Of a DNA stretch of 64,000 nt, positions 58,106 through 60,777 are shown in pieces; position 1 is the first letter of the stretch; the number at the start of each line of letters is the position of its first letter. A program made the position numbers and the translations under genes. The DNA comes from an uncultured candidate division Zixibacteria bacterium (GTDB lineage Bacteria; Zixibacteria; MSB-5A5; RBG-16-43-9): positions 1,600,001-1,664,000 of the forward strand of contig OY970208.1 of the NCBI GenBank assembly GCA_963713865.1. The letters are read 5' to 3'. The notes below the pieces were generated by a model. The model searched no databases, was not told the origin of the DNA, and was given only the letters and a program-made list of their open reading frames with translations.

Positions 58106-58561
58106 CTACTTTGATATAAACCAGGTATAGAGATTCTTGCGGGCTAATATAAGCCATAAGACAAAGGGGATGCACCAGTTCAAAAAATAGAGGCACAAGG
58201 ATACGGTTAAGCCTGCTTTTGAGGGGTTTTCACTCAGTCCGTAGATTAAAAAAATGAGTTCAGCTATCAATATCTGCCATAAGAAGATTAGAAAAAGCCC
58301 CAGGAGAAGTTTTTTTACTATCTTTTGAGATTTTATCCCCGGGATGATTAAAAGAAGGGAGATAAAGGGCAAGTAATTGTAAAATAAAGAAGTTAAAAAA
58401 GGGAGAACGATCAGGTCTATGCCGAGGAGATTAAGAATTGGGGGAACTAGGTAGTCGAAGAAAAGAAAATAATAATATTCCCCTTTCCAGTACCAGAGGG
58501 CGAATAAAATCAAGGAAATTGCTGAAAATTTTAAGATAAAGGGGAGAAACTTCTCTTTCAT
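58106..58561 (-). CDS. Exosortase H-associated membrane protein
   Basis: Four-TM protein directly downstream of the exosortase, with P+VLW near the C-terminus. Start taken as MKEK because the ATG at 58585 lies in a repeat. Confidence 0.55.
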   Translation of the reverse strand: MKEKFLPFILKFSAISLILFALWYWKGEYYYFLFFDYLVPPILNLLGIDLIVLPFLTSLFYNYLPFISLLLIIPGIKSQKIVKKLLLGLFLIFLWQILIAELIFLIYGLSENPSKAGLTVSLCLYFLNWCIPFVLWLILARKNLYTWFISK

Positions 58562-58589
58562 AGAATCGTAGTGCGACCCTTTCAACCGC

Positions 58590-58621: not shown

Positions 58622-59198
58622 CTAAAATCTTTCGGATTTTACTATCTTCTCTATCCATAGAATCCAGGTACAAAGAATGATTAATATCAAAGCTACCTGC
58701 CAGAAATATAGATGCAAAAACTCAAAGGCATCCGGTCGATAATTAGAGATAACTGCTATAAAAACCATCCTTATAATGTTGATCAAAAATATAAACGGAA
58801 TCCCAAAAAGAGTACCCCAGAGCTTCTTTTTAAGGCTGGATGGATAAGCTAACATACCTAATAAGAAGATGAACATCTCATATAACCCGGTGCACTCAAC
58901 CACAATTTCAACATTGAAATTTTTCATATTCAAAAATTGCCCGCTGACTTGGGTATCCATTCCAAAAAGATTTAAGACCAGAACCGACTACATAAGCAGT
59001 GGCAAACACTAATTTTTCACTAAAGGGATATAAAAGGTTATCCCGGGTCAGGGAGAACAAAATGGTGAAAGGGATTAATAGCCCAATGAATAAAAGCACA
59101 AACCTAAAAATTGGCTTATAAGCTTTTCCTTTCTTTTCATCTTTCTGAATGATTTCTTTTTTATGGTCTGAGGCAGAACCTTTGAGCTTTTTTTTCAT
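58622..59198 (-). CDS. xrtH: Exosortase H (archaeosortase/exosortase family), +1 frameshift at ~58982
   Basis: ECTG (Cys), NIIR (Arg) and LHLYFWQ (His) triad; adjacent IPTL-CTERM gene. Confidence 0.8.
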
Positions 59199-59317
59199 AC
59201 GGTATAAGATTCAAAGCATAACCTCGATTTGTCAATGTTATTTTTGTTTTATGTAGCGGAAGGACATCAAGCTCTTGACGCTTCAGCCTTTCCATCTCTT
59301 TCCTTCCACACATAATT

Positions 59318-59347
59318 TTAAGGGCTGGCCTTTCGACCAGCCCTTAA
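59318..59347. terminator. Stable hairpin between the IPTL-CTERM gene and xrtH
   Basis: TTAAGGGCTGG...CCAGCCCTTAA. A U-tract is present only on the + strand, so terminator polarity is unclear. Confidence 0.45.
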
Positions 59348-59365
59348 GTTTTTTGCCTACACCAC

Positions 59366-59836
59366 TTATGCAGTTACAGGTTTTCTCCTCATCAAAAGAT
59401 AGACCCCGGCTACAATAATCAAAGCAACCAGAATGATCATACCCCACTGGGTTAGGCTTGGAGTGGAATATTTTTTATTATATGCAGCATCACAGGCGCT
59501 GACTTTACGGCCTATGTCATCTACTAAGCAGGCAGTTACACTGACAGCACCACAGGGTCCTGTCCATGTCTTACTCCACTTTCCAGAGCCATTTGTTACG
59601 ACGACCTGCTTAGTTTCGATTAAACCGCCCTGGCTGTCTAAGTTCTCTAGATCAACGTGATAGTTATTTCCTACATTATTAGCTTTCCCGGATACCCTAT
59701 ACAAGCATTGATTATTTCCCAGATCTTTCTTAATAGCAATTGTGATAGAAACAGTGGGTGCTTGTGCCATGAGAGTTCCCCATGCTATTGCCACAAAAGC
59801 AAGTGCTATAAAAATGGCACACATTTTTCTAAACAT
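59366..59836 (-). CDS. Small exported protein with IPTL-CTERM sorting signal
   Basis: Signal peptide; C-terminal TPSLTQWGMIIL-TM-RRK; SD GGAGG before ATG 59836. Confidence 0.85.
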   Translation of the reverse strand: MFRKMCAIFIALAFVAIAWGTLMAQAPTVSITIAIKKDLGNNQCLYRVSGKANNVGNNYHVDLENLDSQGGLIETKQVVVTNGSGKWSKTWTGPCGAVSVTACLVDDIGRKVSACDAAYNKKYSTPSLTQWGMIILVALIIVAGVYLLMRRKPVTA

Positions 59837-59897
59837 AGCTTCCTCCATCTATGAATTGGCCTAAAGTTACTTTATTGAAAATAATCATCGGAAGAAA

Positions 59898-60617
59898 TCA
59901 AAAGGAAGATATAGGTGGTCCACGCAACTGGGGAATTAGGAAGAACTTTTGAGAGAAAAGCTTGTGGTTCTCGGCAAAACTCCAAAATATTTCTTTAGTG
60001 GTAAACTTTATTCCGGTAGCTTTAAAGATTTTAACAGCATGTTCAATTATTTTTACTAATAGTGAATTAAGAAGAACTACTATGAAAGAAATGACTCCAA
60101 AACCAAACAGGGTTACAAGTCTCAGGAAAAAAGGAGTTGAAGGTGTGGAGTGAGTAAGCAAGCCGCTGGTGTAACCAAGCTTAATGAGTCCTAATTCAAA
60201 GAAAACCCACAGGACAGATACAATAATCGGACTAAATCCAAAATACTGTTTCGTCAACCCTACTGTCCAGCCCCAGAGGGCAAAAAGGAGGGTTCCGCCT
60301 ATAATCATTAAGATGGCTGAGGCAGGAGTAACCAAAAGAGCATCCAGGCTCCAGAAGGTAAAGAAGGTAAGACCGAGTAGAAACCCCAAACGAAAAGCTT
60401 CTCTGGTAGAAGCCTTATTGATTCTCCAAAGAAAGGGAAACAGTGCAACGAAAGAGAAATACCAATAGCCGGGGAATAGATTGGCTACTAATAAAAGAAG
60501 GGCACTTGTGCCTGAATATAGAAAATCTTCTGCCAGCTTGGAAAAGGAGTGCCCAAGTTCTAAGGAACCGGACAGACAATTATTACCTCTATGGCACCTT
60601 TTTGGGGGTAAAAACAT
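59898..60617 (-). CDS. Membrane protein resembling the Lnt N-terminal TM domain, without nitrilase domain, ending in RGPP
   Basis: FSFVALFPFL..AF.LGFLLG and LFG..VISFIVVLLN resemble Lnt TM segments. SD AAGGGG precedes the ATG. Confidence 0.6.
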   Translation of the reverse strand: MFLPPKRCHRGNNCLSGSLELGHSFSKLAEDFLYSGTSALLLLVANLFPGYWYFSFVALFPFLWRINKASTREAFRLGFLLGLTFFTFWSLDALLVTPASAILMIIGGTLLFALWGWTVGLTKQYFGFSPIIVSVLWVFFELGLIKLGYTSGLLTHSTPSTPFFLRLVTLFGFGVISFIVVLLNSLLVKIIEHAVKIFKATGIKFTTKEIFWSFAENHKLFSQKFFLIPQLRGPPISSF

Positions 60618-60748: not shown

Positions 60749-60777
60749 ACTTTACATTTTCAGGGAGCTTTTGTCAA
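60749..60777 (-). promoter_or_regulatory. Putative promoter for the RGPP leader/IPTL-CTERM unit
   Basis: Minus strand TTGACA, 17-nt spacer, TAAAGT. Confidence 0.5.

Follow-up and report, generated by a model that had tools for sequence, protein, structure and literature searches.

What is the function of a short gene that encodes only the membrane half of apolipoprotein N-acyltransferase (Lnt), ends in RGPP and a few further residues, and lies directly upstream of a gene for an exosortase-H-type (IPTL-CTERM-like) surface protein? The question is raised by a locus in a 64,000-nt window of contig OY970208.1 (GCA_963713865.1) from an uncultured candidate division Zixibacteria with a genome of 2.72 Mb; "the window" refers throughout to this entire stretch. 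On its minus strand, a compact gene row consists of a 239-residue open reading frame (ORF; 59898..60617), a 61-nt spacer, the surface-protein gene, a hairpin, an exosortase gene and a gene for a 159-aa membrane protein. The first ORF, delimited from the ORF list and family homologs, encodes a Lnt-type transmembrane (TM) domain, a disordered linker, RGPP, a 4-residue tail and a stop. We refer to it as the leader and to the surface-protein gene as its cargo. A preliminary description of the window had proposed that this leader is a force-sensing arrest peptide that gates translation of the cargo. Our analysis indicates that the leader probably belongs to a conserved family of cis-acting translation-arrest leaders of the RAPP/RGPP class. 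Fetched genomic loci are labelled L### and genomes G###, with G000 denoting the window's own genome.

A conserved C-terminal motif at a fixed distance from the last helix

The arrest-type motif of the leader is formed by R232, G233, P234 and P235 (codons CGT GGA CCA CCT, 59913..59924, minus strand) and is followed by the tail ISSF and a TGA stop (59898..59912, with TGA at 59900-59898), just as the preliminary description had read it. A word-indexed search returned 153 homologs. The 120 that were listed are 131-321 aa long, and those with a named source come mostly from Zixibacteria metagenome-assembled genomes (MAGs). All 120 carry a C-terminal xxPP, which is RAPP in 79, RGPP in 38, and RDPP, RSPP and HAPP in one each, giving R[AG]PP in 117 of the 120 close homologs. 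When 1.84 billion cluster representatives were scanned in full with HMMER, 652 clusters were identified at E<=1e-3, 108 of them at E<=1e-30. The best 150 clusters are all short (96-291 aa). The family is a large one of stand-alone Lnt membrane domains, mostly from Zixibacteria. Of 149 more distant representatives (50% cluster level), RxPP is found in 136 (RAPP 75, RGPP 50, RSPP 8, RDPP 2, RCPP 1), with R[AG]PP in 125 of the 149; of the 13 without RxPP, 11 are fragments that end before the C-terminus and two have LSPP. R[AG]PP is likewise present in 30 of 33 loci fetched from species-representative genomes, the exceptions being L008 (RVPP), L033 (RDPP) and L034 (no motif). Within alignment A1 the two prolines are invariant and the arginine is at least 90% conserved.

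Two fetched copies are damaged. The leader of L029 is frameshifted and has retained RAPP. The L034 copy is degenerate, its frames broken and RAPP gone, yet it still precedes a cargo-like gene.

These residues have a known activity. The main text of Fujiwara et al. 2025 (PMC12992588) describes RAPP and RGPP as stalling ribosomes in several peptide contexts and as resisting EF-P. In the mutagenesis of ApdA and ApdP reported there, Arg was irreplaceable, Gly was fully permissive in place of Ala, and Ser, Asp, Pro, Val and Glu were partly so. As judged from the aligned sequences, the natural variation of the leader family (Ala or Gly, rarely Ser, Asp or Val, with Arg almost never replaced) mirrors this mutagenesis. 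The same text reports that RAPP/RGPP motifs are avoided in proteomes but over-represented toward the C-terminal ends of secretory and membrane proteins of fewer than 300 aa. In the window's genome, R[AG]PP occurs four times in 2242 crude ORFs and only the leader's copy lies within the last 30 residues; by sequence count this rarity matches the proteome-wide avoidance, and a chance origin of the leader's RGPP is unlikely. Two of the four matches (G000:C1:942199 and 1516889) begin 24 positions into long open frames, where they form part of a repeat, KAGFRKAQRAPPL, which is probably a repeated non-coding element located 5' of the true starts.

Across the family, all four Pro codons are used at both proline positions of the motif and all four CGN codons at the arginine. 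This synonymous variation implies that selection acts on the peptide. A separate observation concerns the arginine codon (window 59922-59924). All 33 of 33 loci use CGN here; each of the four third bases occurs, and AGA and AGG are absent. AGR accounts for 41% of Arg codons elsewhere in these leader genes and for 67% genome-wide in the window's genome, and another conserved arginine of the family is encoded by AGG in 4 of 22 loci.

We analyzed column entropy and register in a gap-free alignment of 255 sequences anchored on RxPP. Conservation collapses immediately after the second proline, where the entropy rises to ~3.8-4.0 bits, and the tails of the listed homologs range from 0 to 47 residues with a median of 9. 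The 12 residues ahead of the motif are moderately conserved, with Pro at -3 in 79%, and positions -40 to -21 in the linker are unconserved (3.2-3.8 bits). Landmark residues of the last TM helix (TM6), at -62 to -45, nevertheless stand in one register relative to RxPP in 77-88% of the sequences. The distance from helix to motif has therefore been kept while the sequence between them drifted. In the window, TM6 spans residues ~163-193 (60039..60131, minus strand), based on a helix at 163-202 in the AlphaFold model and the register of the landmarks, and the linker comprises residues 194-231 (59925..60038), its length kept and its sequence mostly not, as judged by model confidence and column entropy. 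The C-terminal end of TM6 thus lies ~41-43 residues before P234. Conservation of the motif and of its spacing from the membrane were the first two checks that the preliminary description had attached to its proposal, and both came out in favor of it.

By analogy with the published arrest peptides, the following sequence of events is plausible. The ribosome would make a six-helix domain corresponding to the Lnt membrane half and then a linker of ~40 unstructured residues, and would most likely stall with Pro234 and Pro235 occupying the P and A sites, respectively, an assignment of the two motif prolines taken from the main text of PMC12992588. At such a stall the linker would fill the exit tunnel, and the end of TM6 would be ~41-43 residues from the peptidyl-transferase centre, roughly where helix integration finishes; according to the relevant part of PMC7886326, the force on a TM helix ends with its C-terminus ~45 residues from this centre. 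A stall that coincides with the end of TM6 insertion would agree with this spacing, although the spacing is no proof of it. The duration of the stall could then report on insertion or folding of the Lnt-like domain, and the stall would act in cis on the adjacent surface-protein gene.

One ORF in a Bacteroidota MAG has a different architecture. At L035:5989-6165, a 58-aa ORF fuses the first two family helices directly to ERAPP and an 8-residue tail, 41 nt ahead of two IPTL-CTERM cargo genes, and its chain is so short that the helices would sit inside the tunnel at a stall. A protein database search with this ORF returned only itself, and no conserved family of such mini-leaders was found.

The Lnt-type membrane domain

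The preliminary description had likened the leader to the TM half of Lnt alone, and this was borne out by the ORF list, a profile match and structural comparison. Residues 38-186 (60060..60506, minus strand) cover the LNT_N profile fully (Pfam PF20154, 1-159 of 159) with E 3.5e-11 and 44 bits against a cut-off of 27.1. No nitrilase (CN hydrolase) domain was found by Pfam in the 239 aa, and the chain stops 47 residues past TM6. Six TM helices are predicted. An AlphaFold model built with 49 family members as input has a mean predicted local distance difference test (pLDDT) score of 74 and helices to residue 202; the end of the leader is predicted to be disordered from about residue 204, with pLDDT below 50 for residues 204-228. 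When this model was compared with the PDB by Foldseek, the best 24 matches were all Lnt structures (probability 0.96-1.00, TMq ~0.45), with weak E-values of 0.05-0.4 despite the high probabilities. A PDB sequence search with the family profile returned no Lnt, the sole match being a designed protein (E 0.0014). By BLASTP, leader residues 53-193 align with the genome's own Lnt at E 4e-4, with 27% identity over 147 aligned positions that are confined to the membrane helices.

Such a partial match could have arisen if the ORF were a truncated lnt pseudogene with an RGPP that is there by chance, given that only the N-terminal domain of Lnt is present. The genome, however, carries a separate full-length lnt of 501 aa (an ORF in L001), hundreds of stand-alone homologs of ~220-290 aa keep the motif, and R[AG]PP is rare in the genome. 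The separate lnt gene and the stand-alone homologs rule this explanation out for practical purposes, and we assign it next to no probability. The homologs are neither intact lnt genes nor pseudogenes; intact lnt homologs, which would have made the ORF a pseudogene, were among the outcomes that the preliminary description had said would refute it.

The membrane fold and the LNT_N domain are common to the leader and to Lnt (PDB 8b0l, 5n6h and others). The nitrilase domain and the helices past TM6 are features of Lnt that the leader is missing, as is the catalytic Glu-Lys-Cys triad, which we take to be a feature of Lnt. On domain content, the leader cannot be an N-acyltransferase, and its putative sensor module clearly descends from the membrane domain of the enzyme. 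Two further ideas were rejected. The motif is not inherited from Lnt, as Lnt runs on into another TM helix and has no RAPP counterpart. A leader helix acting as a mimic of the sorting signal was set aside because the leader gave no IPTL-CTERM match even at E<=1.

The domain itself is well conserved, with 18 invariant columns across the six helices in alignment A1. As far as such conservation can tell, the six-helix domain probably senses something or has a second role.

Surface-protein cargo and exosortase context

In the window and in 32 other loci, the next same-strand gene encodes a signal-peptide protein that ends in P-[ST]-L-T-x-W-G followed by a TM helix and a basic cluster. L005, which is cut by a contig end, was left out of this count, and the sorting signal of L034 was judged by eye. 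An exosortase-type cargo is thus found downstream in 33 of 33 judgeable loci, the outcome that the preliminary description had anticipated for the identity of the downstream genes. The window's cargo is a 156-aa signal-peptide protein from the ORF list (59366..59836, minus strand, ATG 59836-59834), and its sorting signal consists of TPSLTQWG, a TM helix and RRK (~59369-59464). The leader-to-cargo distance of 61 nt in the window compares with 36 to ~400 nt, or an overlap, in relatives; in L024 and L027 the leader tail runs into the cargo gene. The cargo bodies are mutually unrelated, with 16% mean column identity, and even the cargo of L003 is only 27% identical to that of the window.

Profile searches at E<=0.1 matched 22 of 27 cargos to NF033207 (midcut_by_XrtH) and 14 of 27 to TIGR04174 (IPTL_CTERM). 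The preliminary description had called the window's cargo an IPTL-CTERM protein. It does resemble the signal on sequence grounds, but it does not qualify by score, since its matches are below the curated cut-offs (TIGR04174, 14.2 vs 20.5 bits; PF18203, 15.9 vs 20.8 bits; and also below for midcut_by_XrtH).

The exosortase gene downstream is of the XrtH/archaeosortase-B-like type and is spread over two frames (58622..59198, minus strand), as established by NCBIfam matches on its 3' part and by alignment with L003 and L004. The gene is split by a single additional T near 58982-58983, a 1-nt insertion relative to L003 and L004. Related-strain contigs (runs X1, X2 and X4) are without the extra T, which is either an assembly error or a strain-specific inactivation. 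Against the TIGR04177 cut-off of 86 bits, the frameshifted window gene scores 73.9, L003 75.7 and L004 81.4, with L008 (104.8) and L022 (101.8) above it. An exosortase gene lies inside the fetched flank in 8 of 33 loci.

We examined the relation between leader and exosortase in a phylum sample of 151 genomes, 54 of which have a match over the TIGR04177 cut-off. An XrtH-like gene is present in 67 of the 151. The leader is found in 45 (31 of 88 genera), all of them among the 67, and in 0 of the other 84; as related genomes in the sample are not independent, this nesting is to be read as a pattern and not as a statistic. Up to seven leader-matching places were found in G036 and six in G090, these being places matched and not copy numbers. 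Four MAGs contributed two fetched loci each, and in these every copy stands before its own cargo gene, one of the eight (L034) being degenerate.

Comparison with strains that are ~95% identical to the window adds to this picture. The leader, the exosortase and the sorting-signal end of the cargo (59364-59446) are kept, while the cargo body and the leader-cargo spacer (59447-59899) are replaced by 517 other letters, similarity resuming exactly at the leader stop codon, 59900. From the sequences, the surface-protein swap looks like cassette exchange. In one of two bridging contigs (run X1), the cargo-exosortase spacer (59161-59363) is replaced by 454 letters. Because copies of the leader travel with each cargo and the cargo is swapped behind a constant leader, the leader is taken to act in cis.

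This arrangement bears on the alternative that RxPP does its work in the finished protein, which might be an exosortase accessory protein that is bound or processed at this cytoplasmic site, with any stalling incidental. Strong conservation of the membrane domain, restriction of the family to XrtH-positive genomes and a tail that inspection of the sequence by the positive-inside rule predicts to be cytoplasmic would all fit such a role. However, copies duplicated with each cargo gene would be needless for a trans-acting protein, the residues allowed in the motif match the arrest mutagenesis data, conservation ends exactly at the second proline with random tail lengths beyond, and TM6 stands at a fixed distance from the motif although the disordered linker between them is not conserved. 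We therefore regard a motif of the finished protein as very unlikely and retain the arrest leader as the preferred explanation.

A more specific role for the arrest leader is that of a monitoring substrate for the exosortase pathway. The last helix, which has the topology of a sorting signal (outside-to-inside, then basic residues), would be engaged by exosortase H or its lipid, and the length of the stall would match synthesis of the cargo, and of the exosortase where the operon continues, to the sorting capacity. We consider this improbable. A complex prediction with the L003 exosortase and leader residues 25-205 gave a score of 0.11 (mark 0.32) and speaks neither for nor against binding. 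If this role were true, the leader would be the first arrest peptide to sense a sorting transpeptidase, and it would show an enzyme membrane domain reused as a co-translational sensor.

The remaining features of the row lie on the same strand. A promoter-like site, TTGACA-17-TAAAGT, is located 5' of the leader gene (60749..60777) and is a consensus match only, with 10 of 12 positions matching in the scan. A consensus scan also placed a terminator-like 13-bp hairpin 3' of the cargo gene (59318..59347). The 159-aa membrane protein (58106..58585) has no Pfam or NCBIfam match and is found 3' of the exosortase here and in relatives, with the same gene order in L003, L004, L008 and L022.

Output of the putative stall and comparison with known systems

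How might a stall in the leader alter expression of the cargo? The preliminary description had favored a classical switch in which a stalled ribosome covers an anti-Shine-Dalgarno (anti-SD) tract by the proline codons and exposes the SD of the cargo, so that the stall is the ON state. The sequences it relied on exist. The tract UAUAUCUUCCUUU (59913-59901) is complementary to GGAGGAAGCUAUG (59846-59834), which comprises the SD and ATG of the cargo, and the intergenic region (59837..59897, minus strand) contains a second pyrimidine tract, UUUCUUCC (59897-59890), in addition to the SD itself, GGAGGAAG (59846-59839). The minimum free energy (MFE) fold of 59930-59820 contains the pairing as described; the centroid structure does not. 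The fold is no better than that of shuffled sequences, as its MFE of -14 kcal/mol is weaker than the shuffle mean of -18.9 (z +1.38) and 187 of 200 shuffles fold at least as well. Pairing between the SD and the stall footprint has a probability of 0.33 vs 0.16 in shuffles, a value reached by 20% of shuffles. By these models the SD pairing in the window is no better than chance.

The wider family gave a similar result. In partition-function folding of 28 loci, SD-footprint pairing was >=0.3 in 8, and 8 beat at least 90% of shuffles. In a sliding-duplex analysis the footprint window was among the best 10% of windows in 14 of the 28, an enrichment that is in part built in because the CCN-CCN codons resemble an anti-SD. 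The nearest relative, L003 of the same genus, is without the pairing (duplex -3.6 kcal/mol, probability 0.03), and the intergenic region differs in the strains that are 95% identical to the window. The anti-SD that the preliminary description had expected to be conserved hence fails as a general feature. An SD-sequestering hairpin, which we presume to be typical of secM-secA, is not general in the leader family, and a general RNA switch was discarded after the sliding-duplex, partition-function and footprint-constraint tests found none. The models do not support a stall that unmasks the SD as a general feature of the family, and we judge it unlikely as the explanation of the locus.

A second route would use the arrest as a brake or a tether. 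Either the cargo would need the leader ribosome to be released and to reach the stop codon, by translational coupling, or a stalled, membrane-bound ribosome would hold the mRNA near Sec and the exosortase. Several features are in keeping with this: there is no general structure that masks the SD; the leader is always directly upstream on the same strand, and the tails in L024 and L027 overlap the cargo start; the cargo needs Sec export and a membrane anchor; and pyrimidine tracts just past the stop can be seen by eye in the window, L003 and L004. However, a modelled terminating ribosome frees the SD in only 4 of 28 loci, and at many loci the spacer, at 100-400 nt, is so long that coupling is unlikely. 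We consider this route rather unlikely. The arrest leader might act on the cargo by unmasking the SD in some lineages, by braking translational coupling or by tethering the mRNA to the membrane.

Several points weigh against the arrest leader as a whole. Ribosome stalling in the family is argued by analogy, and release of the stall by force and a change in cargo translation are inferences. Among the 20 sequencing runs surveyed, none is on record as RNA. The conservation of the six-helix domain, read from the alignment, suggests a role beyond that of a spacer. Across the 28 loci the mean predicted SD accessibility is 0.33 vs 0.37 in shuffles, and a modelled stalled ribosome lifts accessibility by >0.2 in only 5 of the 28 and a terminating ribosome in only 4. 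In the window the SD becomes less accessible when the footprint is held open (0.11 to 0.03); under the modelled stall it stays paired, now with the second pyrimidine tract. The window's assembly has a single XrtH-like gene, and this gene is frameshifted. A second, classic IPTL-CTERM cargo in the same genome (G000:C1:1350667-1351500, with a DIPTLSEWG... end) has no RxPP leader upstream, and 22 XrtH-positive genomes are without a leader. The leader-cargo distance is also variable (36 to ~400 nt), and TTGAC(A)-like boxes and short hairpins were seen by eye in several long spacers among those of L013, L014, L016, L018, L020, L021 and L030; some of the cargos may be transcribed from a promoter of their own.

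If the stall is real, the arrest leader would extend RAPP/RGPP arrest control to exosortase-sorted surface proteins. The family, being large and strict in its linker length, lends itself to tests of force-sensing by a multi-pass membrane protein. Retention of leader and sorting signal with a swapped cargo body suggests that the locus is an expression cassette, portable between variable surface proteins, in a phylum that is uncultured.

The preliminary description had stated that no such control was known for exosortase systems. A link between exosortases and arrest peptides was not found in the searched literature, nor was a description of the regulation of exosortase sorting, and to that extent the statement holds. 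The main text of PMC12992588 has no occurrence of Lnt, apolipoprotein, Zixibacteria or exosortase, and that of PMC10987492 none of Zixibacteria, exosortase or apolipoprotein; the supplementary lists of downstream genes of both, which may include this family, were outside the search. RAPP/RGPP leaders before genes of many functions were, however, already described in 2025 in the main text of PMC12992588. The principle of RAPP/RGPP arrest leaders is thus already published, at least as set out there; neither the Lnt-derived family nor its connection to exosortases turned up in the literature searched.

The exosortase H/IPTL-CTERM system (TIGR04177, TIGR04174, NF033207) shares with the locus the XrtH-like exosortase neighbor and a cargo ending in P-[ST]-L-T-x-W-G, a TM helix and a basic cluster. 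The library models matched for this system include no leader or arrest component, and the window's cargo and exosortase fall below their curated cut-offs. The Sec/YidC monitoring substrates SecM, MifM, VemP, ApdA, ApdP and ApcA, as treated in the relevant parts of PMC7897499, PMC10951233 and PMC10987492, have in common with the leader a C-terminal arrest motif (RAPP in ApdA and ApdP, RAGP in SecM), an N-terminal localisation element whose translocation or insertion is believed to release the chain by pulling on it, and control in cis of the gene that follows. Their 3' gene encodes localisation machinery, whereas the leader precedes a secreted cargo and would thus stand outside that group; the leader also differs in having a large, conserved multi-pass domain.

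The closest comparison is with the broader RAPP/RGPP class, as described in the main text of PMC12992588. Stalling was shown there for seven Streptomyces lividans proteins, four of which have four TM segments, and proteins with these motifs lie 5' of genes of many functions. Sequence traits of this class are found in the leader, which has RGPP at 232-235 of 239 residues, a variable and unconserved tail, TM segments and a close same-strand gene 3'. Common to both are a length of <300 aa, TM segments, R[AG]PP a few residues before the stop, a same-strand 3' gene that is not a Sec or YidC component and a conserved N-terminal domain as a possible sensor. Relative to the class as that text presents it, the leader's own features are the six-helix Lnt-homologous domain, an exosortase cargo as the output and several leader-cargo pairs per genome.

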